From Kiritimatiellia bacterium (GTDB lineage: Bacteria > Verrucomicrobiota > Kiritimatiellia > RFP12 > UBA1067): a stretch of DNA of 61,914 nt. Positions within the stretch are counted from its first letter, which is position 1; each line of letters begins with the position of its first letter. The notes under the pieces are model-generated. The model was not told where the DNA came from. It searched no databases and saw nothing but the letters and a program-made list of their open reading frames with translations. Position numbers and translations under genes: made by a program. The DNA lies in the NCBI GenBank assembly GCA_045599445.1, contig JAZRWB010000030.1:1-61914 (forward strand), read 5' to 3'. This document shows, piece by piece, positions 1-13,464 of the stretch.

Positions 1-527
1 ACCCCCTCGTCGGACGCCTCGGGATGAATCCTCACGAACTTGCCGTTTGTCACGATTTCGCGGCGTCCGTCCTGCGATATGACCTCGAACCGGTCGCCGA
101 GATCTCTCTGCCGGACGGAGAATATCTGCGATCTCTCCGACCCCGTCTCGTTGATCGGACGAAGCCGCGCCAAGGCGGCGGAGAGTCCCTTCTTCGCCAT
201 CATCTGCACCTTGAGCTTGTTGACCTTCGGATCAAACGGCGAATTCGCCGCGGGGAATCCGCCCTCCAGCGTCACGCCAATCGCGAAGTCCTCGAAATCC
301 AGCCGGTTGCCGTTCGAGAGCTCCTCCTTGATGTACTCGCAAAGGCCATTCACGTACATCTCCGCAAGCGCGGGTTTCGATCCGATGAAACTGGCGAACC
401 GCCCGATAATCACGTCCTTCGTGAGCGTATTATTATGACGGATGCGTCCGATATGCTTCACCTTGCCCTCCAGCAACTTCGAATTGCTCGGCGTCGTGGC
501 ATACCCAATCGTACTTGCGTAAATCAT
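1..527 (-). CDS. HU/IHF-like DNA-binding protein, possibly with a C-terminal Ig-like (DUF4469-type) domain; 3' end runs off the window
   Basis: Absent from the ORF track because its stop is outside the window. Manual translation from ATG at 527: MIYASTIGYATTPSNSKLLEGKVKHIGRIRHNNTLTKDVIIGRFASFIGSKPALAEMYVNGLCEYIKEELSNGNRLDFEDFAIGVTLEGGF... AGGAG RBS at 533-537. The helix-helix-'EELSNGNRLDF'-beta pattern resembles HU-HIG family proteins (family call by recognition). Confidence 0.6.
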   Translation of the reverse strand, partial: MIYASTIGYATTPSNSKLLEGKVKHIGRIRHNNTLTKDVIIGRFASFIGSKPALAEMYVNGLCEYIKEELSNGNRLDFEDFAIGVTLEGGFPAANSPFDPKVNKLKVQMMAKKGLSAALARLRPINETGSERSQIFSVRQRDLGDRFEVISQDGRREIVTNGKFVRIHPEASDEG

Positions 528-552
528 AATCCCTCCTAGTATCGGCTAAACT

Positions 553-699
553 GTTATATAAGAGATTCTATCATGTTATATAGCGCTTGTCAATGCGTCA
601 TATACCGCCCACCAAACCGTAATATAACGCCCAACCAACTGTTATATAACGCTCAACCATCCGTTATATAACGCGCACACAACCGTTATATAACGTTTA
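553..699. repeat. Array of seven palindromic GTTATATAAC-like boxes with exact 22-bp period
   Basis: Cores start at 553 (GTTATATAAG), 575 (GTTATATAGC), 597 (GTCATATACC), 619 (GTAATATAAC), 641, 663 and 685 (GTTATATAAC). The last four full 22-bp units are similar direct repeats, e.g. ACCAACTGTTATATAACGCTCA and ACCATCCGTTATATAACGCGCA. Confidence 0.92.
565..593 (-). promoter_or_regulatory. Sigma70-type promoter of the HU-like gene
   Basis: Minus strand reads TTGACA-17 nt-TAGAAT with an extended -10 TG, 37 nt upstream of the ATG at 527. Confidence 0.8.
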
Positions 700-766
700 C
701 CCTACACCCTTGGCACTCTTCATCCGCACCTCGGCGGCAACCGAATCGTCACCCGTTTAGTAAGCC

Positions 767-868
767 TTACAGCTCACTTGATGCAGAAATCCACTCCTGC
801 GCTACGACGAAATCCACCGCCAACGCCTGCACCGGATCAAACTTATCTCTCTTTGGCAAGTAGCTCAT
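767..868 (-). pseudogene. 33-aa ORF, possible truncated N-terminus of a helicase-like gene
   Basis: MSYLPKRDKFDPVQALAVDFVVAQEWISASSEL* loosely resembles the Q-motif region before Walker A in SF1 helicases but stops there. Confidence 0.2.
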
Positions 869-907
869 ATCTTATTCACTTACAAATTAGGCGCCCCCTA
901 ATAAGAC

Positions 908-1639
908 TTAAAACAATTCATACTGCTTAGCAGTTCTTGAACGCTTAATCCGATCACTTCTTGCACCACTGTTTGTTTGCGCCAAATCAACAATCTCTTT
1001 TGGATGATACTTCAAAAACTCTTTCTTATTGGAAAGGGCATCATCCAGCACTCCATTTGCTTGCAACGACAGATAAAGCGCAACTGAATATGCCTGACAG
1101 TTCAATGATCTAACAGGATTAAATTCAATGTCTGTAAAACAGTTGTATTCTTTCAGTTGACAAATCAAATCAGAATTGCGGTGCAAAGCCCTGCAGTAAA
1201 TCCAGTCGTAAAACGCTCGCGTGGGATTCAATTCCCATCTTTCCTCTCCTGTCTGAAAGGCCACAAGCGGCAAACCCATTCCTTTAATTTTTGCTCGTAC
1301 CACAGAAGGATCTTCTCCATACAATTCAGGGAATGGCCCTATTTCACCAGCAAACACCTTGCTCGCCTGAAATACAGATTCTACGCAACAAAACCGTCCC
1401 TTTGACTCAACCCCTAAATTAAATGCACTCAATCGAACACCAATATCATACTTTGATTTACTAGATACTTCCAGAGGGATGAAATCCGGATTCTTCATAC
1501 AAATTGCAGCGTGCAACGCCAAAACGTTCTTCTGCTTCTGCACAAATGCAAATCCTGGATTCCACCGAAAAGGTGCTGAAGTCAAAACTGTTACGCCCAC
1601 GCCATTGACATTAGGGAGAAACACTGGACGAGTTACCAT
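908..1639 (-). CDS. darG1: NADAR-family antitoxin (DarG1; DNA ADP-ribosyl glycohydrolase)
   Basis: Motifs RPVF.P, W.PGF...QKQK, LEVSSKS, LSAFNL, VESVFQASKVF, FYDWIY and FTDIEFNP..S.NCQA match DarT1-associated NADAR proteins. Lies 12 bp downstream of darT1. Confidence 0.9.
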   Translation of the reverse strand: MVTRPVFLPNVNGVGVTVLTSAPFRWNPGFAFVQKQKNVLALHAAICMKNPDFIPLEVSSKSKYDIGVRLSAFNLGVESKGRFCCVESVFQASKVFAGEIGPFPELYGEDPSVVRAKIKGMGLPLVAFQTGEERWELNPTRAFYDWIYCRALHRNSDLICQLKEYNCFTDIEFNPVRSLNCQAYSVALYLSLQANGVLDDALSNKKEFLKYHPKEIVDLAQTNSGARSDRIKRSRTAKQYELF

Positions 1640-1651
1640 AAAGCCATCCTT

Positions 1652-2344
1652 TTACGACATGAAATCCTCATGACAAACACGCACTTGAGGCAACTTCATC
1701 TCTGGGTACTCAATTTGCAATGCTCTCGAAACCATCGCATGATGCTCTTCCGATTCCACAACAATCCCCTGTATGTACTTAACATTAATTTCATCAGGAA
1801 ACATAACTTCAGCCTGTCGATCCGTCGGACAATTATTAGGCACGCCCATCCGAGTTGAAACCCTCCGCCCATACATGTTCCCAACAACTACAGAATCTGC
1901 AAACATCGCCTTCAATGCATCTATACCAATCCCCGTGCCACAATTTCGCACATAAGAGGACGCAGCGTTACCAACGGTAAAGGACACCCCTTCCGCCGCT
2001 AATATCTCTGGCGAAATCTCCAAAATACACCAAATGTCACACTCCGTGAATTTCTTCTTAAAGCTCGTGAACAAATATTGATTAATCCGTTGTATGGATA
2101 AATTAATGCAATCCCGCCTGCCATCTAATCGAAGACCATCATTCCAACGGATATAATCCAATAAGAAAAAATCAGATTTACTTTGCGCAACCGTCTCTAT
2201 TTTTTGCTTTGCCCACAAAGCCCCCATCTCATACACACCAAGCAAATTACAAAACGGGGTGAAATGAACCAATCTTGTGATCCCGCGTTCTTTCACAAAC
2301 GCCTGTATTGCCGCGGCATCCGGCGAAAGCACAAACTCAGCCAT
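1652..2344 (-). CDS. darT1: DarT1-type ssDNA ADP-ribosyltransferase toxin (DUF4433)
   Basis: Motifs R.I..L.HFT...NL, ND..R.DG..D.I.LS, W.ILEI.P, NAAS and PTD.QAE (catalytic Glu) are typical of DarT1. Paired with a NADAR gene. Confidence 0.9.
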   Translation of the reverse strand: MAEFVLSPDAAAIQAFVKERGITRLVHFTPFCNLLGVYEMGALWAKQKIETVAQSKSDFFLLDYIRWNDGLRLDGRRDCINLSIQRINQYLFTSFKKKFTECDIWCILEISPEILAAEGVSFTVGNAASSYVRNCGTGIGIDALKAMFADSVVVGNMYGRRVSTRMGVPNNCPTDRQAEVMFPDEINVKYIQGIVVESEEHHAMVSRALQIEYPEMKLPQVRVCHEDFMS

Positions 2345-3716
2345 TTTCCAAGACCTCCGTCATCAGCGCTGAATCAATCTCCGCCAGCAATGGTGTCGGC
2401 GACATTCCGGGAACAATCGTCAAGGTCTCACAAGCCCTTGTCATCGCCACATAGATCAACTTACGCATTTTTGAAATCTCGTCCGGATCAAGCCCTTTTG
2501 TAGAAAAGACTTGATCATTCATGTCTAAAAGGTAAACGTGATCAAACTGCAACCCTTTGAGAGAATGATATGTGGACGCCGTCACACACGCTTTGCCAAA
2601 ATTGCAAACCTTGATTTTCCGTGCTGATGTGCGCACAGGCACCCCCGCTTTCTCAAAGAATTGCTCAACTTCGGCAACACGTTTGCGACTGTAAACGGCC
2701 ACAACGGTTTTATCATATGAACCAACGCCCTTAATGCGACGTATTACTTCCGCAAGACACCAAGAAGTCGATCCCTTCAACACAATCGGCTTAACTCCTT
2801 CTCTGCTCGAAGGGATCATCTCTGTAAAATCGGTATTGTCTTTCTCGTGGCGCATCAACGAATAAGCAGCCTCGGCAATTTGCCGAGTGTTCCGATAATT
2901 TCGCTTGAACTCAACACTTCGGCCAACGACTTTCAACCCCAAATCAGACCACGAAAACCCACTTTGGTAAATTTGCTGCGCGGAATCTGCAACAATTGTA
3001 ATGCTATTTGTTTCTTCGCTTACCAACTGACGAATCAACGATATCCGTGAGAAGGAGAAGTCTTGGGCTTCATCAATAACCACATGCGAAAATGGCCGGA
3101 CGAACCCTGGCTTTTCCACAATCGCCAGCGCATCCAAGACGCGATCGTCCCAGTCACGCATATGCGATTCAGCCAACTTGCAATTATATGCCTCAAACAA
3201 TTTCCAGAGCAATTCTCTGTCCGCCATCGTAACGCGATCTTCTGTTCCTCGGCCTGTCCGCTTAGTGTTCTTATATTGATCAAGGTTAGAAATACGACGC
3301 CCTTTCAGCCAACTAATTTCCGCACAGTAAAAATCATCATTCTTATTTGCAATCGCCTTATCTCTGACCCCACTAAACGTTATAGCCCTAGCATGCTCAC
3401 GAGCCCGTTTCAACACCCCATCATCGATAAAATCATCCCTTCCCAATTCAAGAAAACGAAAAATCCATCGGTCTAGCCCATGCACGGCTATCTGTTGCCC
3501 TCGGACCATTCCCTCAATCGCAGAGACGAGTTCGTTAGTATATGTAAATATGGCGACGTTGGTCGCTCGAAAAAGATCCGGGTGGTCGGCAAGCAGCATC
3601 TCTGCACGCTTGACGGATACGAGCGTTTTCCCCGAACCCGCGCCACCTTTTATGAGCACAGCCCCATGAATCGGCAGCGTCAATGCGATTTTCTGCTCGC
3701 CAGAAAGCTTTAACAA
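2337..3716 (-). CDS. UvrD/Rep-like SF1 DNA helicase
   Basis: GGAGSGKT (Walker A), FTYTNEL, IDEAQD (Walker B), ADSAQQIY, NYRNT, HSLKGLQFD and YVAMTRA. TTG start with AGGAGG upstream. Overlaps darT1 by 8 bp. Confidence 0.9.
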   Translation of the reverse strand: MLKLSGEQKIALTLPIHGAVLIKGGAGSGKTLVSVKRAEMLLADHPDLFRATNVAIFTYTNELVSAIEGMVRGQQIAVHGLDRWIFRFLELGRDDFIDDGVLKRAREHARAITFSGVRDKAIANKNDDFYCAEISWLKGRRISNLDQYKNTKRTGRGTEDRVTMADRELLWKLFEAYNCKLAESHMRDWDDRVLDALAIVEKPGFVRPFSHVVIDEAQDFSFSRISLIRQLVSEETNSITIVADSAQQIYQSGFSWSDLGLKVVGRSVEFKRNYRNTRQIAEAAYSLMRHEKDNTDFTEMIPSSREGVKPIVLKGSTSWCLAEVIRRIKGVGSYDKTVVAVYSRKRVAEVEQFFEKAGVPVRTSARKIKVCNFGKACVTASTYHSLKGLQFDHVYLLDMNDQVFSTKGLDPDEISKMRKLIYVAMTRACETLTIVPGMSPTPLLAEIDSALMTEVLENG

Positions 3717-3731
3717 CTCGCCTCCTTGAAC

Positions 3732-5762
3732 CTATTCGGCCTCCAACGATGGCAAGCCAAGTTTGTCAAAAAACATCTTATTCCTAAGCATCGCATCGTC
3801 AACTAATCTGTCATATGATATGACTTCAATATATGCGTTATACCCACTATGATACCCATAATATCCCATGCCATCCGGCGTCGGCTGCAAAGAAAACTGT
3901 CTTGCACATTTTTGAACCGAGGACAAGACATCACAAATAACATAGCAATACCCCAGCATATTTTCTGCTTTAGGTATCGGCCGACCATCCACAGTCTTCA
4001 CCTTCCCGCTCCGAATTTCCTCCAAATAATCAACTGCCTGCTGAATTGGATTTTCGCCTGAAGGATCAGCATCATTGCGCATCGGTCGCTTGAACTCCAC
4101 CACCGTTAGTGTTGAAAACGGAGGCGTCTTTCGTTCGGAAACAAACTCTGGCGGCAAATAATCAGAGACATTAAGCGCCAACAGATCAGGTTGTTTTGCC
4201 GATTGAGAATCCGTTATTGGCATCGACGAAAATGTTTTATCTGATCCTAAATAATTATGAAAAGCCAATCGTTCATCAATAACCCACAAATTGCATTCAT
4301 TAATGTGAAGCTGATCTGACGTATGTCCCATCGGCATTATAAGATTATGAATCAAGTCCTCTCGAACGTATTTCCCCGTAGGCTGCTTTTTTATTGCATA
4401 TTTCAATACAGCAAGTACTGCACGGCGATGCGCCACATATGCCGCGAGATCGGACTGTTTCACCTCAACCATCTTCGTAACATATTCTTCAATCTTACGC
4501 TTATACACCTCAGCAGACTCATCAACCTTTGGAGTCATGATCTCATGACCAGCTGTTATAAACTCCTGCTCCAAATCAATAAGCTCTTTGTGCAACAGCA
4601 GATGCAAATCTTTATTTGAAATATCAGGCGAAATCGGACGACCGCGTTTTTCTAGCCGCTTTATAACGGATTTATACTGAGGAGCATCTTTATCGACAAA
4701 ATCCTGTATCCGCTGCTTTGTTTTTGTAATGTTACAAGCTGTTTGACTTGCTAAATGGCGCTCTATCAACTTAAGTGCCGCATCGCGAATTTGTTGCAAC
4801 GTCACCTCGTGTTTGACACTAAACAATTCATCAGAGGATGAATCATCAAAATCAAATTCCGTCCTTTCGGCCCTTACATGTTCATCCAGATAGGGTGATG
4901 AAACATACCCTGTATAGAAAAACTTCCCAGTTTCATCATCCAACTCCCCAAACAACCCCGGAATTGCCCCGTCTAATTTCTCAGAAGACACCTGACGCGT
5001 CCCCGCGCAATAAGATAACGAATGATTTCGTGTAACTGATGATCTCACGCGGATATGAACCAATTCAAAATGTTCTTTCCCAACATCAAACTCTTCCGTC
5101 TTAGGATGTCCTACCATATATCCTTCAAACTCATCATCCAAATCAATTGTGCTATTCTTGTCGCCGATAAGAATCTTCGGAACGCTCCCGGGGCGCAGAA
5201 AATACCACAAACAATGCTCAAGCACTAATCGAGCAATAATATCTGCGCCTTTAGGACAATGCTTCCTATACTTAGCGCGAAATTCCGAAAGAAACACCTC
5301 GGATCCTGCTTGCGCATTTTTGTCCGCGGCACAATCTATTGGATCACTAACACCCCCTCGTTCAGTAAAATCAAATTGCCTACTAATCAATCCCTCCCTC
5401 CCTGAATATACACTTTTTATCTCAACTTTTTCAAAGGCCTTTAACCACAACAACCTACCTACACCACGGCAACCATCGGACGCCTTGAAAACCGAATCCA
5501 ACTCATTGAAAGAATTAAAGTTGTCCTCATTAAAACCAATTCCATTATCAGATATTCTAAATCCAATGATATCTCCCATTGCGTCATCTTCCTGGAGGAT
5601 AGGTTCTCTGATAATTTCTACTTTTATCCGCCCGTTATCCTTCCAATCGGGCATAGCCTCAACAGCCTGAATCGCATTCACAATTGCCTCGTACAGCGGC
5701 AACAAGGCATGTGAGTATGGTAATTTGGTATTTTTGAGCCTGCCAATTAAGTTTGATTTCAT
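3732..5762 (-). CDS. GHKL (MORC/HATPase_c-like) ATPase fused to a C-terminal PD-(D/E)XK-like nuclease
   Basis: N-box EAIVNAIQA, G1 DNGIGF, G2 GCRGVGR, G3 GSEV. C-terminal PDLL...VEFKRP...PIQQAVDY fits PD-EXK with a QxxxY motif. Confidence 0.8.
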   Translation of the reverse strand: MKSNLIGRLKNTKLPYSHALLPLYEAIVNAIQAVEAMPDWKDNGRIKVEIIREPILQEDDAMGDIIGFRISDNGIGFNEDNFNSFNELDSVFKASDGCRGVGRLLWLKAFEKVEIKSVYSGREGLISRQFDFTERGGVSDPIDCAADKNAQAGSEVFLSEFRAKYRKHCPKGADIIARLVLEHCLWYFLRPGSVPKILIGDKNSTIDLDDEFEGYMVGHPKTEEFDVGKEHFELVHIRVRSSVTRNHSLSYCAGTRQVSSEKLDGAIPGLFGELDDETGKFFYTGYVSSPYLDEHVRAERTEFDFDDSSSDELFSVKHEVTLQQIRDAALKLIERHLASQTACNITKTKQRIQDFVDKDAPQYKSVIKRLEKRGRPISPDISNKDLHLLLHKELIDLEQEFITAGHEIMTPKVDESAEVYKRKIEEYVTKMVEVKQSDLAAYVAHRRAVLAVLKYAIKKQPTGKYVREDLIHNLIMPMGHTSDQLHINECNLWVIDERLAFHNYLGSDKTFSSMPITDSQSAKQPDLLALNVSDYLPPEFVSERKTPPFSTLTVVEFKRPMRNDADPSGENPIQQAVDYLEEIRSGKVKTVDGRPIPKAENMLGYCYVICDVLSSVQKCARQFSLQPTPDGMGYYGYHSGYNAYIEVISYDRLVDDAMLRNKMFFDKLGLPSLEAE

Positions 5763-5812
5763 ATCTTTTTAACTTTCTTTCTGTTACTTGATCGTCCCAC
5801 TTGCAACCATAC

Positions 5813-6862
5813 TTACTTCACTATCAAACCAAACCTCTCGTCTACACGCTTAAAGCAAATTGCAGTTTCGCAAAGCCACTTAAACGCCGCCGGCCATTCG
5901 GTCTGGGGTGCGTTGATGTCAAATTCCTTCACGACCGAGAACGCGCCATCCATCTTGGCCATATTCCATTCAACCTTAGAGCCGACAAATTTCTCAATCT
6001 CCTCGCGGCGATCTTGAAACGCCTCAAAAACTTGCTTCGCCTTGCTAACATAGATGCCACAGAGGATATTCCCCTTCTTGGAGGTCACCCGCATGAACAC
6101 ATGATGAGTCGAGTGGTCAATTCCAAAATCGTAATAACAATACTTCCCCGGCTTGCGCAGATTAAACTCAGCCACAAACGCCTCATTCTTCTCCGCATAC
6201 TTGTTAAATGCCGTCCAGAAGGTTAAGATCGCCTTCTGTCGAGCAGACATTGACTTATCCGCACCCTTTTCATGCTTGTCATCATCCTCAAATGGTTTCT
6301 GCCTTTTCCAATCTTCGGTAATCTCACCATCCGAAAGAAGCCGCTGGACCTTCCTAAACACCTCCAACGCCTCCGCAGGACTGATGTTGAAAAACTCACG
6401 TTTAGGACTGATGCGCTTGGCATTAAAGTAATCGTGAATCAGCTCCTCAGTCTCAGAGAACTTGGATGTGCGTAGTGTCGCATAGATGTTAAACTCCTTT
6501 GGCAACGCCGTCGTAAAGAGCTGCTTTGCACGATCCTCAACCGCACCCTGCGTTTTACCGATTTTGACAATGTTCGGCTGAAAGCACGGATGCGTCAAAA
6601 TATAAACGAAACCCTCATTAGACTTTTTTCCTGTTTTGCCACCGCCCGACAATATAAAGTAACCATGCCCCGCCTTTGCAAAACGCGACTTCTCTCCCTG
6701 CTTCTTGATGTCCTCATATATTGATGCACCAACCGAATCCTTAGGCGTTGATCCTCCCGGTTGCCAAAATCCGCGTTCGGTTATTTCCGCCGTCAACTCA
6801 GCGCATTTCATCGGCCTCCTTGCCGACTTTAGTACCTCATATGCCGCATCTAGAATATTCAT
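5813..6862 (-). CDS. HARE-HTH + GIY-YIG (T5orf172) + DUF4268-like three-domain nuclease
   Basis: N-terminal DAAYEVLK...PM...EL...I...G..P..S..ASIY.DI...G..SRF (HARE-HTH). Central GFVYILT.P....VKIGKT...R...L...P..F...E..IH...R.....REFF (T5orf172). C-terminal FW..F...IE...G..VEW...W...F.WL (DUF4268-like). Confidence 0.8.
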   Translation of the reverse strand: MNILDAAYEVLKSARRPMKCAELTAEITERGFWQPGGSTPKDSVGASIYEDIKKQGEKSRFAKAGHGYFILSGGGKTGKKSNEGFVYILTHPCFQPNIVKIGKTQGAVEDRAKQLFTTALPKEFNIYATLRTSKFSETEELIHDYFNAKRISPKREFFNISPAEALEVFRKVQRLLSDGEITEDWKRQKPFEDDDKHEKGADKSMSARQKAILTFWTAFNKYAEKNEAFVAEFNLRKPGKYCYYDFGIDHSTHHVFMRVTSKKGNILCGIYVSKAKQVFEAFQDRREEIEKFVGSKVEWNMAKMDGAFSVVKEFDINAPQTEWPAAFKWLCETAICFKRVDERFGLIVK

Positions 6863-6873
6863 AGCTCCCCCTT

Positions 6874-6987
6874 TTACTCCATCGGTTTGATCATCGACTC
6901 GATGAATGCGATTTCTTCTCGAGTCAGCTTGTGCTTCTTGTACAGCTTCGCCTCATCCCACGGCTCGGAAAAATCCTGCATGGGGAC
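6874..6987 (-). pseudogene. 3' remnant of an Eco57I-type R-M methyltransferase gene
   Basis: Manual translation VPMQDFSEPWDEAKLYKKHKLTREEIAFIESMIKPME* is the characteristic C-terminal tail of Eco57I-domain R-M proteins. It ends 11 bp before the GIY-YIG gene and has no upstream gene body. Confidence 0.75.
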
Positions 6988-7025
6988 TTGCCGAACCCTC
7001 CATCTGTTATGCAACACCCCAACAT

Positions 7026-7853
7026 TCATCCCAACTTCCTCGTTATTAGCTTCTGCTTAATCTGATTGCCGATTATCAAATGATCCAGCACTTCAACCCC
7101 TATTGCCTTGCCGAGCTTCTTCATCACCTCTGTCAGTTGCCGATCCTGAACACTCGGAGTTGAATTCCCACTCGGATGATTGTGGGCAAGGATAATTGAC
7201 TTGGCGTCCAATTTAAGTGCGGCAGCAAACACATCACTCGGCTGGATGGAAGTTGTAGTTGGTTCGCCCAACGAAACAAGGATTGGTTCTGAAAGCGTAC
7301 GATTCTCCAAATCAATTGGCAACACGAAAAGCCCTTCGTTCTTTCCGGCAAGCGGAATCGCCATTTGAAAAATACGCACCGCATCTTCAGCGGTCGCCAC
7401 CTCTGTTCTAACGGTTCGCGCCAGATCATCTGCCATTGTCACTCGCCCCGCCAAAGTCTGAGGCAAATCCCACATACCCATATTTCCGCGGCAAGCGATC
7501 GGCTGATCAAAACAAGCAACCTCTGACAAATCCCACCGATAGCGATAGCCCTCATTCCACAATTCGGCCGCCGCGCTCTCACGACAGGAATAATCAACAC
7601 AGCCGACAATCTTGCCCGGCCAATCGGCGACATCGCTCCACGCCGGAATCATCGCGAACTGATCAGCTGGCAAAGCCCGCGACGCCCACTGAACAAAGTT
7701 CCCGAACTCTTCCTTGCAAAACGATTTGGAACATGACACCGCACATCGCCCTTTTACCGGCGACGGACACATACTACGATTCTCAGCCCGCTTGATTCCG
7801 AGCATGATGAGAATCGCATACGGACCCGTGCACGTAAAGGCGCTGGTAATCAT
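7026..7853 (-). CDS. ASCH-like domain fused to a RadC-like JAB domain
   Basis: N-terminal GPYA.LI..GIK..ENRS...GR..V..S and G.IVG.VD...P.ACRG.MG.W (ASCH). C-terminal E.L.VL...G......P.DVF..A....A..II.AHNHPSG...PS..D...T...G.EVLDHLII (RadC JAB). Confidence 0.8.
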   Translation of the reverse strand: MITSAFTCTGPYAILIMLGIKRAENRSMCPSPVKGRCAVSCSKSFCKEEFGNFVQWASRALPADQFAMIPAWSDVADWPGKIVGCVDYSCRESAAAELWNEGYRYRWDLSEVACFDQPIACRGNMGMWDLPQTLAGRVTMADDLARTVRTEVATAEDAVRIFQMAIPLAGKNEGLFVLPIDLENRTLSEPILVSLGEPTTTSIQPSDVFAAALKLDAKSIILAHNHPSGNSTPSVQDRQLTEVMKKLGKAIGVEVLDHLIIGNQIKQKLITRKLG

Positions 7854-8152
7854 TGAAACTCAACCATCATTTCAAGCGAAGGCTCGTCACCAGAAAAATC
7901 GAGATTGACGGTGCCATACAATTCGCCATCAAGCCACTTAGCGATATTTTCGCAGACAACTTGAATGTCCAACGCAGTCATCAGTTCTCCGAACACAAAT
8001 GACACTCCGGCAAGTTTGCGCCCGTCCTTGTTGTCCCATGCCTTCATTTCAATCAGCGTCAACGAATACTTCTTGCCAAAAACGCGATTGAACAACTTTC
8101 GCTTCTTCAACATCAATTTTTGAAGCTCCACTGTTCGCCGACACCTACTCAT
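7850..8152 (-). CDS. Hypothetical protein (100 aa)
   Basis: ATGA overlaps with both neighbours support a real gene. No motif recognised. Confidence 0.6.
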   Translation of the reverse strand: MSRCRRTVELQKLMLKKRKLFNRVFGKKYSLTLIEMKAWDNKDGRKLAGVSFVFGELMTALDIQVVCENIAKWLDGELYGTVNLDFSGDEPSLEMMVEFQ

Positions 8153-9150
8153 TCTCGTTCATTTTTAAATATTGCACTAAAGTTGTAACGCCATTGCAAG
8201 GCGAAACTCATTCCAATTTTACCTTCTAATGGTTTGTTCATAATGCGTTGCCATACAGATGCACTTGGTGAATGCCAATTTTCGTTCAATGTTCGTGTAA
8301 CCCAATTTTCAGCAGACAGTATAATGCCATCATGAGTCTTGATCGATTGCTGGACACGACACAGCATCTCCTCTGGAATTAACGGTTTGTTCTTCGCTGC
8401 ATATTGCGCATTCTTCCTTGCATAGTCTTTCCGAATGCGACACATCTCATATTCCGCCGGCTTCCTGCCGACCACCACATTCTGCAACAGCTCTATTATT
8501 CTGGCGGCCTCCCAATCACTCTGATTAACATATGCCAAAAAATGAATCGCACGTTTCAACATGCATTCATCATGTCGGACAATTAAAAACTCATGTTTGA
8601 GCGCTTCCGCAAGTGCGCACAAATTTCGATCTGCTATTTCCGATCCACGAAGATAACGTAAATCCTTAATTTGCAACCTCAACCCATGATTTGCGGCCGT
8701 CAGTTTCTTTGTCTTCTGGTAATCAGTCAATAAAATAAGCGCATCATTCTCATTTCCGACAAGGCGTTCATATGCCGAAAAATACGGTTCGCTCGTGCAG
8801 AAGTTCTCCGATGGAGATTTTACCCCCAGCTCAAGTTCTGGGATGTCCACACCTTTAGCCGGGTTGATGTGAAGTTGAATTGATGACTGCAGCACGTACT
8901 TCTCAATGACACATGCCAACAATTTTTCCACGACGCTTCCAATTGTCTTGCCATCTAAATTTGGAAGCGTTTTGTCGTTTGCCAATTGCGCAAACCAACT
9001 TGGCAATTCGCCAGTCGAGTCAATGCGCTGCAGAATTGGCTTAACATCCCCAAGCTCTTCGCCAGACAGAACCTTGTTGAGCCAAGTTTTTATAACATCC
9101 AACTTACTGGAAATCAGTGCGCGATATGCACTCATACACATCCTCCTCAA
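8149..9150 (-). CDS. Putative Type II restriction endonuclease
   Basis: Coupled by an ATGA overlap to a C5-MTase. G...EKLL...GVDIPELELGVKSPS resembles a PD-(D/E)XK core. Specificity unknown. Confidence 0.65.
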   Translation of the reverse strand: MRRMCMSAYRALISSKLDVIKTWLNKVLSGEELGDVKPILQRIDSTGELPSWFAQLANDKTLPNLDGKTIGSVVEKLLACVIEKYVLQSSIQLHINPAKGVDIPELELGVKSPSENFCTSEPYFSAYERLVGNENDALILLTDYQKTKKLTAANHGLRLQIKDLRYLRGSEIADRNLCALAEALKHEFLIVRHDECMLKRAIHFLAYVNQSDWEAARIIELLQNVVVGRKPAEYEMCRIRKDYARKNAQYAAKNKPLIPEEMLCRVQQSIKTHDGIILSAENWVTRTLNENWHSPSASVWQRIMNKPLEGKIGMSFALQWRYNFSAIFKNERE

Positions 9151-10982
9151 TTAAATAACGGAAGCTCGTTTGACTCAAAACGAATCGTTTGTTGCTTGAT
9201 TATCTTTTCTAACGCATACGCAACAATAGACGGCGGAACGGCATTACCATACAATCGATACTGTTCATACACGCTTACTGCCCGGCAATGATTATCAGGA
9301 AAACCTTGAAGTCGCGCATATTCAACATTTGTCAATCTCCTGAACTTTCCATCAATTCCATACCGCTCATAATGTCGACTTGATGAAGCCGTCAGCGTTG
9401 GCGACAGCCCATCTGTTCCAAAGATAGTGTATCCCATTCTTGCACCTCCAGACTGATTGTAGAGAATACGAACTCCATTGTAAAATTTATTTACAAATTG
9501 ACTTTTTTTGATTCGTTCCAATGTATCCGCTGTAAAATCGAATTCAGGCGGCACATCCTTCTGCAAAATATCATGCAGGATTCTTTCCCGTTGAATCCCG
9601 CGTAATGGCTGAAAATCATAAGTGACACACCTTCCATTGAGCGCCAAGCCCCACTGCTGGAACTTACCATTTGCCGATGATATGTCATTCCAAAATCTTA
9701 ATTGAGCAACATCCTCACGCTTCTTAATCGGCATTGCATTAATTTCCGCCTTGGTCACAAAATACGAATCCGTATCCTTCGCTTCGCGACTACCACATAT
9801 GATAACACGCAAACGCTGCTGCGGCAGTCCAAAAGCCGCGGCATTAAACACCCGCCACTCTATCTTGTACCCAAGTTCTGATAAAGCAAACAGAATTGTC
9901 CTAAAATTACGTCCATTGTCTAAAAACAACAAGCTGTTTACGTTCTCAAGAACAAAATAACGCGGAATGTTTTTCTTCAGGATCTTCACAATGGTTTCAA
10001 ACAAAGTGCCACGATAATCATCAATTCCCATCTTCTTCCCGGCACGAGAAAAAGGCTGACATGGGAATCCGCCGGTAAGAATGTCGTGCTGTGGTATCTG
10101 ATCAACTAAATTGTTTATATCTCCCAAAACGATAGAGTCTTCCCCAAAACGATCTCTATACACTTTGACTGCACTTTCGTTTATGTCATTCGCCCAAATT
10201 GTCTTAATGCCAAGAGCATCACACGCAAGACGAAAACCTCCAATACCCGCAAAAAGCTCTACCGCCGTCAAACTTCTTGAACCCCCGGTTGGTTCTTCAA
10301 GCTCGACTGCTTCATTGACAGACTGATTTGAACCAGAAAAAACAGCTGGAATTATTACAACACCTGAAAGTCCTGCAACCGTAGTTTCGATCATCTCACG
10401 TCGTGAAATTTTACTAACACACCTCTCTGTGGATGGTTCATCACCCGCTTCGCACACGCGCAATACCTCGGGTGGAAGCTTAGACAGCAACGGCGGCAGA
10501 TAATTCGCCAATAACGGATCCTTGCGATCAGGCGAAGACAAATAGTCGCGAAGCTTCTTTTGCACCGACTTCGATGTTGCGAAGTCCTGCAGACGGACGA
10601 TCACCTTCTCAGCAAGTCCTGAAGCGGGACTGTAAACCCTTGTCTTGCTCGTGGCGTAAAGAATGTAGTTACCCGTGCCATGTGGTTTTCCCTTCGCCGG
10701 ATAACCAAATTCGGACTTCAACTCTTTTCTTGTTTTGAATCCGACAAACTTCGCCCTAAGGCATACTGGCTCTTTTTTCGCATTGAAAAGCCAAATTTCA
10801 TTCACCCGCTTTGCAAACTCGGGTTCAATCTTGTCACCGTCACAAATCGGATAGTTGTAAAAACCGGGCCACTTCTCCAACTGGCCAGATTTGTACGTAC
10901 CGACAAGCACAACCTTCTTTGCTTTTGTCGCAACCTTTTTTGGTGCGACCTTGTGCTTCTTGGATTTCATTACCTTTGCCAT
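9147..10982 (-). CDS. DNA (cytosine-5)-methyltransferase with an extra N-terminal region of about 235 aa
   Basis: Motif I ELFAGIGG, IV GFPCQPFS, VI LENV, VIII PQQRLRV, IX ARLQGFP, X LYGNAV. Confidence 0.93.
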   Translation of the reverse strand: MAKVMKSKKHKVAPKKVATKAKKVVLVGTYKSGQLEKWPGFYNYPICDGDKIEPEFAKRVNEIWLFNAKKEPVCLRAKFVGFKTRKELKSEFGYPAKGKPHGTGNYILYATSKTRVYSPASGLAEKVIVRLQDFATSKSVQKKLRDYLSSPDRKDPLLANYLPPLLSKLPPEVLRVCEAGDEPSTERCVSKISRREMIETTVAGLSGVVIIPAVFSGSNQSVNEAVELEEPTGGSRSLTAVELFAGIGGFRLACDALGIKTIWANDINESAVKVYRDRFGEDSIVLGDINNLVDQIPQHDILTGGFPCQPFSRAGKKMGIDDYRGTLFETIVKILKKNIPRYFVLENVNSLLFLDNGRNFRTILFALSELGYKIEWRVFNAAAFGLPQQRLRVIICGSREAKDTDSYFVTKAEINAMPIKKREDVAQLRFWNDISSANGKFQQWGLALNGRCVTYDFQPLRGIQRERILHDILQKDVPPEFDFTADTLERIKKSQFVNKFYNGVRILYNQSGGARMGYTIFGTDGLSPTLTASSSRHYERYGIDGKFRRLTNVEYARLQGFPDNHCRAVSVYEQYRLYGNAVPPSIVAYALEKIIKQQTIRFESNELPLFN

Positions 10983-11004
10983 ACCAAACTTCGTCGATAG
11001 TTGT

Positions 11005-11013
11005 ATTATATCA
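11005..11013 (-). promoter_or_regulatory. Extended -10 element (TGATATAAT) upstream of the C5-MTase operon
   Basis: TGnTATAAT lies 22 nt before the ATG at 10982; the same motif recurs across the window. Confidence 0.6.
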
Positions 11014-11016
11014 AAT

Positions 11017-11172
11017 CTACGCTACATTCACACTCCAGCAATTCGCTTTGCACGGCGACTTGATGGTTGTTTCCCCGACCTTCAGGAGTCCCGCGTGATC
11101 GACCGATCCGGGAATCTAATACACGTAGATGAGAAAATACGAACACGGGGCGATGTAAGGATAGTCCGTCAT
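11017..11172 (-). pseudogene. 5' remnant of an Eco57I-type/Type IIG R-M gene with an in-frame stop
   Basis: MTDYPYIAPCSYFLIYVY*IPGSVDHAGLLKVGETTIK... (TAG at 11116-11118). LIYV..I....H.G.LK.GETT is the GIY-YIG-like N-terminus of large Eco57I-domain/helicase R-M proteins. Confidence 0.6.
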
Positions 11173-11316
11173 TTCTTCTCCTGTTCCTCAATCGGCTTAA
11201 ACTCAAACGGCGGCATAAAACATATTATATTTTGCACGCCCACATGTCGTAATTGTACCAAAATCCACCCTATCGCGGACGATATTTTATGCTTTTATAA
11301 CATTTTCGTTAGGATA

Positions 11317-11345
11317 TTGACAAGCGTCGGCAGCCTCAGGATAAT
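11317..11345 (+). promoter_or_regulatory. Plus-strand sigma70-like promoter pointing towards the fucO 3' end
   Basis: TTGACA-17 nt-GATAAT. Confidence 0.5.
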
Positions 11346-11432
11346 GGCAAAACTTCCCACCCGCCAGCTCATCAAATTTCGCCCTGTCAATTCATTCCCC
11401 ATAAAGGATATCTTCTGACAACGCGAGTAATT

Positions 11433-11486
11433 AGTTGGGGTGGGTAGTTGGAGTTGATGCTCCAACTATTCTCTCCAACTCTTTTA
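11433..11486. terminator. Long hairpin just downstream of fucO, probably a (bidirectional) terminator
   Basis: 21-nt arms AGTTGGGGTGGGTAGTTGGAG and CTCCAACTATTCTCTCCAACT around a 6-nt loop, followed by CTTTTA on the plus strand. Confidence 0.65.
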
Positions 11487-12632
11487 TATCAGCGAAAGGT
11501 AGAGCTTTTCGATCTCCTTCACCGTGAGATCGCGCGGATTGCCCGGGCGGCAAGCGTCGGCGTAGGCGCTCTTCGCGAGGAAGGCGACGTCCTCTTTCTT
11601 CAAGACGCCCTTCAGATTCTTCGGGATTCCGACGTCCTTCGAAAGCTTTTCCACCGCCTTGATCGCCGCCTCGCGCGCCTTGGCGAGCGGAAGCTTGTCG
11701 GCGTTCTTAACGCCCATCGCGAGCGCGATCGCGCGGTACTTCTCGCCCGTCTTCGGCGCGTTGAACTTCATCGCCGTCGGCAGGAGAATCGCACAGGCCT
11801 TGCCGTGCGGCATATCGTAAAGCGCGCTAAGCCCGTGCGCCATCGAGTGGTCGATGCCGAGGCCCACGTTGGAAAATCCCATGCCCGCGATGTACTGCCC
11901 GAGCGCCATGCCCGTGCGCCCTTCCATCTTGCCCGCGACCGCGTCCCGAAGCGAGCGCGAAATAAGGCGAATCGCCTCCAAGTGCATCATATCGGTCATC
12001 GGACACGCGGCCTTGGTGATAAGCCCTTCGATCGCGTGGGTCAGGGCGTCCATGCCGGTGAAGGCGGTAAGCCCCTTGGGCATCGTCGCCATCATTTCGG
12101 GATCGACGAAGGCGACGACCGGAATATCGTGCGGATCGACGCAGACGAACTTGCGCTTCTTCTCGACATCGGTGATGACGTAGTTGATCGTCACCTCGGC
12201 CGCGGTGCCCGCGGTCGTCGGGACGGCGAGAATCGGCAGGCACTTGTTCTTGGTCGGCGCGACGCCTTCAAGCGAACGGACGTCGGCGAACTTCGGATTG
12301 GTGAGGATAATGCCGACGCCCTTCGCCGTGTCCATCGAGCTGCCGCCGCCGATGGCGATAATCGAGTCGGCTTTCGCCGCCTTCGCCGCCTTGACGCCGT
12401 TCTTGACATTGGCGATGGTCGGGTTGGGCTTGATTTCGGAATAAATCGCGAACTTGATCTTCGCCTTTTTGAGAATGTCCGTTACCTTCTGGGTAACGCC
12501 GAACTTGATGAGATCGGGATCGGAGAATACGATCGGACGCTTGAGCCCGCGCGCGGCAAGTTCCGCGACAATCGACTTGACGGCGCCCGCGCCGTGATAG
12601 GAAGTTTCGTTGAGGATGATGCGGTTGACCAT
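11484..12632 (-). CDS. fucO: Lactaldehyde reductase (Fe-dependent alcohol dehydrogenase)
   Basis: NRIILNETSYHG start, IGGGSSMD, PTTAGTAAEVTINYVITD, DALTHAIEG, GMGFSNVGLG.HSMAH. Confidence 0.92.
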   Translation of the reverse strand: MVNRIILNETSYHGAGAVKSIVAELAARGLKRPIVFSDPDLIKFGVTQKVTDILKKAKIKFAIYSEIKPNPTIANVKNGVKAAKAAKADSIIAIGGGSSMDTAKGVGIILTNPKFADVRSLEGVAPTKNKCLPILAVPTTAGTAAEVTINYVITDVEKKRKFVCVDPHDIPVVAFVDPEMMATMPKGLTAFTGMDALTHAIEGLITKAACPMTDMMHLEAIRLISRSLRDAVAGKMEGRTGMALGQYIAGMGFSNVGLGIDHSMAHGLSALYDMPHGKACAILLPTAMKFNAPKTGEKYRAIALAMGVKNADKLPLAKAREAAIKAVEKLSKDVGIPKNLKGVLKKEDVAFLAKSAYADACRPGNPRDLTVKEIEKLYLSLI

Positions 12633-12645
12633 TTTTTACTCTCCT

Positions 12646-13464
12646 TTACTTGGAAGCGATTTTCATTTTGTAGCCGTTAAAGCGATGGGTGTTGTAAAGC
12701 GGAAGCTTCTTGTCGACGGGAAGCCCCAGCGCTTCGCGAATCGCGAGGAAATCCTTCACGCCCTTCGGCCCGACTTGCTGGAGCTTGCCGCCGTGGCCCG
12801 CCGCCAACAGCAGGACTTCGCAATACGCATCGGCGTTCTCCGCGAACCATTCCGCCTCTTCGATATCCCTGCCGCCGCAGACGATACCGTGGTTCTCCAT
12901 AAATATGACGTTCGAGGTTTTCGCGGCCCGAGCGACGAATCGGGCGACTTCCTTCGAGCCCGGCGTCGCGTAGGGCGCGAGCGGAATCTGATTGAAGAAG
13001 ATATCCGCTTCGGGATTGATGCCGCTCGGCGGAACCTCGCCCGCGAAGAGAAAGGCGTTGCAGTGCGGCGGGTGGCAGTGGATGCAGGCGTTCATTCCGC
13101 TTTCGCGCATCATCGCGATATGCACCTTGACTTCGCTGGTGCGCGGGCGATAGCCGCAAAGCTGCCCCGCGTCCATGTCCACGAGGCAAATGTCCTCGCG
13201 CTTCATGAAGCCCTTGGAGCACAAGGTCGGAGAGCAAAGAACGAGATCCTCCCCGACGCGCACCGAGAGGTTGCCGCCGTTACCGTCGGTATATCCGCGC
13301 GCGTAGATGCGCCGCCCCATTTCGCAAATCTGGTCCTTGACCTGGTTGATCGCGCTCGAGTTGAAGAACTTGTCGAGTTCCTTGCGCGTTTTCGGTTGCG
13401 GTCCCTTTCGCCAATCGTAGACGCGATTGACGAGCGGCGGGTTGATGTAGAGTTTCTTGTCCAT
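12646..13464 (-). CDS. Class II aldolase/adducin family (fuculose/rhamnulose-1-phosphate aldolase-like)
   Basis: GNGGNLSVR, PT..SKG, TSE..VH, HCHPPH, NHG. Sits between a sugar kinase and fucO. Confidence 0.85.
   Translation of the reverse strand: MDKKLYINPPLVNRVYDWRKGPQPKTRKELDKFFNSSAINQVKDQICEMGRRIYARGYTDGNGGNLSVRVGEDLVLCSPTLCSKGFMKREDICLVDMDAGQLCGYRPRTSEVKVHIAMMRESGMNACIHCHPPHCNAFLFAGEVPPSGINPEADIFFNQIPLAPYATPGSKEVARFVARAAKTSNVIFMENHGIVCGGRDIEEAEWFAENADAYCEVLLLAAGHGGKLQQVGPKGVKDFLAIREALGLPVDKKLPLYNTHRFNGYKMKIASK

Follow-up and report, generated by a model that had tools for sequence, protein, structure and literature searches.

The pairing of the toxin DarT1 with the antitoxin NADAR, named DarTG1, reportedly goes back to LeRoux in 2022. 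DarT1-NADAR acts as a two-gene system in Escherichia coli C7 and in Geobacter lovleyi (PMC11543638), and the accessible text of two papers on this pair mentions neither a helicase nor a GHKL partner (PMC11543638; PMC11125620). A related system, DarHTG (Liu-DS3), combines DarT with a UvrD-like helicase that lacks the 2B domain (DarH) and with an antitoxin resembling ADP-ribosylglycohydrolases, DarG3 (NAR 2026, PMC13069673). According to the accessible text of that paper, DarHTG shields E. coli from T4, T5, T7 and SSL_2009a, its defence needs the active site of DarT and the ATP-binding residues of DarH, and it is most frequent in Thermodesulfobacteriota and Bacteroidota. That the active sites of both proteins are needed has been shown in print only for the glycohydrolase type (PMC13069673). 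The term NADAR is absent from the main text of both this paper and its preprint, and from the accessible part of one of its supplementary files. Here, we analysed a stretch of 61,914 nucleotides (nt) from a Kiritimatiellia bacterium (contig JAZRWB010000030.1 of assembly GCA_045599445.1; the whole stretch is called the window), in which genes for a GHKL ATPase, a UvrD-family helicase, DarT and NADAR stand in a row. We consider it likely that the three genes at 908-3716 encode an anti-phage toxin-antitoxin system of the DarHTG type, in which NADAR is the antidote, and that the GHKL gene is a separate neighbour.

The four genes correspond to open reading frames (ORFs) of 676, 459, 230 and 243 amino acids (aa) on the minus strand in the ORF listing of the window. 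The initial annotation, which was made from the sequence, had described them as co-oriented, with a 15-nt gap between the GHKL and helicase genes, an 8-nt overlap of helicase and darT, and a 12-nt gap between darT and the NADAR gene, and the coordinates agree exactly. The arrangement resembles DarHTG in that a UvrD-like helicase without 2B lies directly upstream of darT, which is followed by a gene for an ADP-ribose-removing enzyme, and in that the DarT belongs to the PF14487 family and has the catalytic Glu. The difference is in the antidote, which is the glycohydrolase DarG3 in DarHTG and a DarT1-type NADAR in the window. With DarTG1 the window shares a NADAR-DarT1 antitoxin that keeps the catalytic E/K/D residues and is encoded beside DarT; in the window, the gap between these genes is 12 nt. 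However, DarTG1 is made of two genes, and the window adds a conserved helicase that overlaps darT. The four genes had been proposed as an undescribed system. The helicase-DarT core is in print as DarHTG (PMC13069673), and because of this publication in 2026 the three-gene core can no longer be called undescribed. The helicase-DarT-NADAR form appears to be undescribed in the literature searched, as a variant of a described system.

Domain searches and structural matches agree on the identity of the toxin and the antitoxin. DarT matches Pfam PF14487 (1e-19), and NADAR matches the DarT1-associated family PF22397 (2.2e-65), with no match to ADP_ribosyl_GH. By the PADLOC models, DarT was matched at 2.7e-9 and NADAR by none, and none of the four proteins was named by NCBIfam above its cut-offs. 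The closest solved structure of DarT is E. coli C7 DarT1 (8baq, 1.7e-12). At the position where the E152A mutant in this crystal has Ala, the window protein has Glu, within its QAE motif. It also retains the Asn and the Arg/Asp named essential by Schuller et al. (PMC11543638). The Asn matching the base-coordinating N104 of DarT1 is kept, and the position of M71 is taken by Leu. For NADAR, the closest solved structure is Geobacter lovleyi NADAR (8bat, 2.7e-46). Its residues E87, K94 and D170 are invariant across 11 relatives and equal the catalytic E88, K95 and D171 of Schuller 2023 (PMC11543638). With Walker A and DEAQD of the helicase also present, the catalytic residues of these three proteins are kept.

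The helicase matches UvrD-helicase (1e-18) and UvrD_C (6e-16) of Pfam, and retains the Walker A and DEAQD motifs in an alignment of 26 relatives. Its residues 6-294 align to residues 14-306 of PcrA, and residues 377-435 to residues 553-613 of UvrD. In between, about 82 residues stand where UvrD has about 247, a region that includes the 2B domain of UvrD, and therefore the window helicase has no space for this domain. Its best PADLOC matches are the GajB models (5.3e-31), and 'NERD+UvrD' models also match. Although the former recalls Gabija, no GajA (OLD/TOPRIM) gene is adjacent in the window, where the neighbours of the helicase are the GHKL gene and DarT. One database protein (P0121, 463 aa) is 99% identical to the helicase, and the next nearest relatives, P0122-P0125 among them, share 59-68% identity. 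A plasmid search with the helicase gave 51 records of at most 31% identity, and neither of the two inspected is DarT-linked. One protein listed with both UvrD and DarT domains (P0197) looked like a fusion and was not counted as evidence. It is likely a product of deletion or assembly, because it lacks both the C-terminal domain of UvrD and the beginning of DarT and is a single sequence.

The coupling of helicase and DarT is conserved far beyond the window. In a scan of metagenome contigs, 342 relatives of the helicase were found, and 80 loci were kept for context counts. DarT lies directly downstream of the helicase on the same strand in 52 of them, that is, in 52 of the 71 assessable loci; nine loci are cut, and the other 19 are without DarT despite at least 700 bases of sequence. 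The third gene after helicase and DarT belongs to an ADP-ribosylglycohydrolase cluster in 35 of the 52 loci and is NADAR in 11 (six are cut off); three members of the cluster were scanned, and all match PF03747. In the 35 glycohydrolase-type loci, the helicases are 26-37% identical to the window helicase, and the DarTs are related to the window DarT. No DNA match to one of the trios (L099) was found in E. coli genomes. A search blind to the helicase gave a concordant picture. Among 401 sampled genomes of the window's phylum, seven have a PF22397 match above the cut-off. Apart from the window's own genome, three of the other six have helicase, DarT and NADAR in the window order, one has DarT and NADAR but no detectable helicase, one has NADAR only and one is cut. 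One of the three with the window order (L172) also shows the overlap of 8 nt. Thus, the helicase-DarT core is widespread, and both the helicase-darT-NADAR order, whose recurrence the initial annotation had proposed to survey, and its claim that the toxin is coupled to a superfamily 1 (SF1) helicase are borne out.

Several variations were seen in loci of this kind. The NADAR of L172 (3238-5049) continues at its C-terminus into a fused extension of some 390 residues that has no Pfam match. In L173, another of the three same-order loci of the phylum, the trio sits within a type III CRISPR-Cas locus (RAMP present), between a Card1-like CARF nuclease and cas1. In L090, L094, L096, L097, L101 and L142, the NADAR gene and darT are convergent, on opposite strands, and in L128 the NADAR gene is upstream of the helicase.

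The phylogeny of DarT also separates the helicase-linked forms. A quick maximum-likelihood tree was made of 66 sequences, with SH-aLRT support and no bootstrap; its groups came from different sampling routes, long branches occur in five rows, and E. coli C7 DarT1 was left out. In this tree, 15 DarT1 sequences without a helicase form one clade (SH-aLRT 97). The window DarT falls outside this clade, beside the DarTs of L172, L087 and L088, all of which have both helicase and NADAR. Among the helicase-linked DarTs, the hydrolase label (NADAR or glycohydrolase) switches at least five times. The coordinates of the features are collected in the table.

Table. Features of the locus in the window, with the basis of each assignment
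Feature	Position	Strand	Basis
GHKL ATPase, S5-like middle domain, C-terminal PD-(D/E)xK motif, paraMORC3-like, 676 aa	3732..5762	-	motifs, fold
DarH-like UvrD-family SF1 helicase without 2B domain, 459 aa	2337..3716	-	Pfam, alignment
DarT DNA ADP-ribosyltransferase toxin, 230 aa	1652..2344	-	PF14487, structure match
NADAR antitoxin, DarT1-associated type, 243 aa	908..1639	-	PF22397, structure match
15-nt spacer with AAGGAGG ribosome-binding site ahead of helicase start	3717..3731	-	read from sequence
HARE-HTH + T5orf172 + DUF4268 protein, 349 aa	5813..6862	-	Pfam, PADLOC
Five-gene cassette	846..6903	.	unit in contigs from other sequencing runs

The GHKL protein belongs to a large and conserved family that has no name in the databases searched. 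Its only Pfam match is HATPase_c, below threshold (E 0.006), and with E values up to 0.01 PADLOC gave a marginal match to LeoB (E 0.0064) and no other. More than 2000 relatives of nearly full length and about 47% identity occur in many phyla, mostly labelled 'ATP-binding protein', and unnamed clusters with the same label were the only result of a protein atlas search. The nearest database relatives have 55-62% identity. In 20 aligned sequences, ExxxN, DxGxG and GxxGxG are invariant, and so are D526, E556-x-K558 and Q575xxxY579 in the C-terminal third. We take this latter pattern to be RecB-like, which agrees with Iyer et al. An AlphaFold model of the protein (pLDDT 75) matches the ATPase and middle domains of Hsp90, GyrB and ParE over about 400-440 columns by Foldseek. 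The C-terminal domain modelled in isolation (pLDDT 57) was too poor for a fold search, and its profile gave only chance-level matches to BofC against the sequences of the Protein Data Bank (PDB). Thus, of the proposed GHKL ATPase-nuclease, the ATPase is supported by both motifs and the fold model, and the nuclease is a putative one, read from the PD-(D/E)xK motif only.

Two groups of described proteins are close to it. In paraMORC3, a GHKL ATPase and an S5-like domain are followed by a C-terminal RecB-like nuclease domain, and these genes are linked to restriction-modification, as stated in the accessible text of Iyer, Abhiman and Aravind (2008; PMC2292703). The window protein shares the GHKL motifs and the S5-like middle domain, and the restriction-linked or stand-alone context of its family is also as described there (PMC2292703). 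For the RecB-like fold of the C-terminal domain, the window protein shows the invariant residues mentioned above, with the model at pLDDT 57. Membership was judged by architecture and not by comparison with reference sequences. The other is Tiamat (TmtA), a GHL ATPase-DNase defence protein that is often beside SF1/SF2 helicases, for which a nick-then-unwind model is proposed; the accessible text of this preprint places paraMORCs in a separate clade (10.64898/2026.09.30.754977). Tiamat is of the same ATPase superfamily and has a nuclease as well, but the window protein has no PADLOC match beyond the marginal one to LeoB.

The genomic context of the GHKL family points to restriction-modification and other defence genes. 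In a species-level scan of about 186,000 genomes (one per species), 463 relatives were found and 80 loci were read. Type I restriction-modification genes lie within 5 kb of the GHKL relative in 32 of these loci. In 21 of the 32, hsdS is directly upstream, often with an overlap of 4 nt, and hsdR comes after in several. This link to type I genes is an observation of the present study and not taken from the paraMORC3 paper. L008, L011, L016 and L025 are examples of a GHKL-nuclease gene between hsdS and hsdR, an arrangement that often shows 4-nt overlaps on both sides. An SduA-like (Shedu) gene is directly upstream in six of the 80 loci, and five of these overlap by 4 nt. Other neighbours are T5orf172, AbiEii, PIN, RhuM, FRG, DUF3800 and Gabija genes. 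A UvrD-like gene adjoins the GHKL relative in four loci. One of them (L057) is GajB of Gabija, accompanied by GajA, and the helicases of the other three (L003, L069 and L075) belong to a different clade from the window helicase and have an N-terminal extension. The GHKL-nuclease is thus probably a separate, paraMORC3-like defence gene, and not a conserved partner of the trio.

The four genes are embedded in a larger island. Nine genes from 10982 to 908 are all co-oriented and closely packed, so that tight spacing is a property of the whole island and is not special to the four. GC content is 0.41-0.51 in the stretch that holds the four genes and 0.59-0.63 on both sides of it. The remaining genes of the island encode a C5 cytosine methylase, a type II endonuclease-like protein, a 100-aa ORF, a RadC-like protein and the HARE-HTH/T5orf172/DUF4268 protein. 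The methylase has 611 aa, of which about 238 are extra N-terminal residues, and its gene overlaps the endonuclease-like gene by 4 nt (pair at 8149-10982). No convincing direct repeat of the attachment-site type was found around the island.

Strain-level contigs define a smaller unit within it. Twenty public runs from 12 studies contain part of window 908-5900, and the contigs of four were compared over window 1-13000. In run X3, a single contig of 6098 bases corresponds to window 846-6903 with 183 differences, and carries the genes for NADAR, DarT, helicase, GHKL protein and HARE-HTH/T5orf172 protein. Contigs of X4 span 1275-3759 and 3973-6906, and a contig of X1 ends at 6905. Depth on the flanks (435-868 and 6511-8246) exceeds that on the cassette many times over, and X3 and X4 have hardly any coverage of the restriction-modification region (8247-10416). 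Since the cassette is covered in these runs and the methylase-endonuclease pair is nearly uncovered, the two are not always together. What travels as a unit is therefore the cassette of five genes, which lies between widely shared flanks and is distinct from the restriction-modification pair. The copies of the cassette are about 97% identical; thus they represent one lineage and give no independent support for a functional link between its genes. Contigs of all three DNA runs have a 14-nt insertion just inside the helicase start (3712-3716). It moves the start codon of the helicase and fits the 463 aa of P0121, and the window version keeps an in-frame start. A joint in X4 from 269 to 7340, which would skip the whole cassette, was rejected as too weak, since one of its sides has only 21 letters and its depth is 3.3. 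In the RNA-library run X20, short contigs fall on darT (2014-2160) and on the helicase (3252-3442), and no contig falls on the GHKL gene; as contigs show neither the presence nor the absence of transcripts, this says nothing about expression.

How far the helicase belongs to the toxin, and the GHKL gene to the helicase, can be weighed on these data. If the locus were a plain two-gene DarTG1, the helicase would be an unrelated neighbour. This would fit the two published pairs, for which two genes suffice (PMC11543638), and the NADAR loci on viral contigs, none of which (0/33) has a helicase; of these 33, 18 have DarT, nine break off where NADAR begins, and in the other six tblastn shows no DarT. 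It is nevertheless highly improbable, given that the helicase overlaps darT by 8 nt, that DarT follows the helicase in most assessable loci, that the window DarT lies outside the helicase-less clade, and that defence by the published relative DarHTG depends on the ATP site of its helicase (PMC13069673). On the other side, some observations weigh against a DarHTG-type trio with the GHKL gene as a mere neighbour. The closest readable helicase loci, L081 and L082 (55-56% identity), are without DarT. They have a zinc-ribbon/transmembrane/coiled-coil gene after the helicase and PP2C and VWA genes before it, which looks like a different helicase-based system. The context counts leave out the nearest relatives of the helicase (P0122-P0125) and of the GHKL protein (P0002/P0003), and kinship to DarHTG is drawn from architecture and from our own helicase-DarT-glycohydrolase loci, not from the Liu-DS3 sequences. 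The GHKL stop codon is 15 nt from the helicase start with no terminator-like site in between, and DarT-NADAR stands beside a GHKL relative in a second place (L047), between htpG and other housekeeping genes. Finally, an Mrr-type nuclease gene is directly upstream of the helicase in 5 of the 80 helicase loci (L085, L107, L119, L121 and L129), at distances of -41 to 104 nt. Pfam was run on two of these five genes and gave HARE-HTH in one, and three more seem to have this domain by tblastn. All five loci are helicase-DarT-glycohydrolase trios and four of them fall in one DarT lineage, so that they may be a four-gene sub-variant. Such recurrence means that a nuclease partner for the helicase is not far-fetched.

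These last points are the ground for regarding all four genes as one system, as the initial annotation did. The GHKL-nuclease would sense or nick foreign DNA, the helicase would load at the nick and make single strands for DarT, as MutL loads UvrD, and NADAR would protect the cell's own DNA. In this form, the GHKL-nuclease would be a working accessory of DarH-DarT-NADAR. It would recognise or nick the DNA of an invader and pass it on to DarH, in the way that nicked DNA goes from MutL to UvrD, so that ADP-ribosylation is aimed at foreign DNA and not released blindly, with Mrr-type genes as an interchangeable fourth part. The 15-nt gap holds a ribosome-binding site and no terminator-like site, so co-transcription of the GHKL and helicase genes is likely; contigs of three other runs also keep the four genes side by side, within the one lineage noted above. 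Nick-then-helicase action is proposed for other GHL defence ATPases (10.64898/2026.09.30.754977), and loading of UvrD by MutL is known (10.64898/2026.09.30.754977; PMC2292703). We hold the four-gene system to be unlikely, and the accessory role with interchangeable Mrr-type genes similarly doubtful, because the genes do not keep company elsewhere. A GHKL relative is found in none of the 80 helicase loci, the six NADAR loci of the same phylum, or the 33 viral NADAR loci, and helicase, DarT and NADAR are all absent from the 51 viral-contig loci of GHKL relatives. In the 401-genome sample, GHKL relatives occur in five genomes and NADAR-DarT1 in seven, and the window's own genome is the sole overlap. 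The four-gene order was not seen to recur across taxa: among the 80 GHKL loci, only L047 joins DarT-NADAR with a GHKL relative, in the different order DarT-NADAR-GHKL and without a helicase. The family is found mainly with type I restriction, SduA and other defence genes, and the UvrD-like genes beside it are of another clade or GajB. Co-folding of GHKL residues 166-676 with the helicase gave a score of 0.00 against a mark of 0.32, in a run without controls, and weighs neither for nor against an association. The GHKL-nuclease might instead work with another gene of the island, namely the HARE-HTH/T5orf172 gene or the methyltransferase-endonuclease pair, in line with the restriction-linked role that has been proposed for paraMORCs. 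Iyer et al. tie paraMORCs to cytosine methylases and endonucleases (PMC2292703), the island has both a C5 methylase and a type II endonuclease-like gene, and T5orf172 genes adjoin GHKL relatives in 3 of the 80 loci (L010, L031 and L048). Yet X3 and X4 have a depth of about 10 on the cassette and about 0-1 on the methylase-endonuclease region, two genes separate the GHKL gene from that pair, and nuclease-bearing paraMORC3 genes often stand alone in the same account (PMC2292703). A partnership of this kind is quite improbable.

A DarHTG-type trio with a NADAR antidote suggests the following course of events. In the uninfected cell, NADAR would strip ADP-ribose from DNA, and DarT would thereby be held in check. 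Upon infection, the balance would tip to DarT, single-stranded DNA would be modified, probably at guanine, and phage replication would be blocked. Guanine is the probable target because the antidote is of the guanine-ADP-ribose hydrolase type and the base-coordinating Asn of DarT1 is kept. For DarH we infer a role in which it uses ATP on DNA and exposes or feeds the single-stranded substrate to DarT. Alternatively, DarH may sense phage replication intermediates or DNA structures, upon which DarT would be released. The GHKL-nuclease and the HARE-HTH/T5orf172 gene would act as separate defence genes, and all five genes are packed in one cassette.

The surroundings of the trio hold further candidates. 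The HARE-HTH/T5orf172/DUF4268 protein matches the PADLOC candidate families PDC-S57 (1.9e-32) and PDC-S11 (2.6e-20), and its gene is a candidate single-gene defence within the same cassette. The N-terminal 150 or so residues of the RadC-like JAB protein (7026-7853) form an unassigned domain. In the metagenome contigs, the region of this gene is far deeper than the cassette, as if it were common to many elements. At the other end, a TTATATAAC-like motif occurs in three 13-nt copies, exact or nearly so, at 549, 637 and 681, and more can be found by eye within 549-700. The copies sit upstream of an ORF at 527..3, with the contig end just beyond, and of the promoter-like sites in this region the best lies at 593-565. 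There is a pile-up of metagenome contigs at 549-700, with a depth of 941 in X1 compared with about 10-20 on the cassette, which resembles a multi-copy or widely shared element.

DarHTG is in print from one paper of 2026 and with a glycohydrolase antidote only, and the NADAR type extends it. The helicase-linked DarTs form a group apart from the classical two-gene DarT1. Within this group, the antidote was exchanged at least five times between two unrelated folds, NADAR and ADP-ribosylglycohydrolase. The unnamed and highly conserved GHKL-nuclease family within type I operons is itself a defence candidate open to testing. Since NADAR reverses ADP-ribosylation of guanine, trios of the NADAR type offer a handle on both the target base of DarT and the contribution of the helicase.

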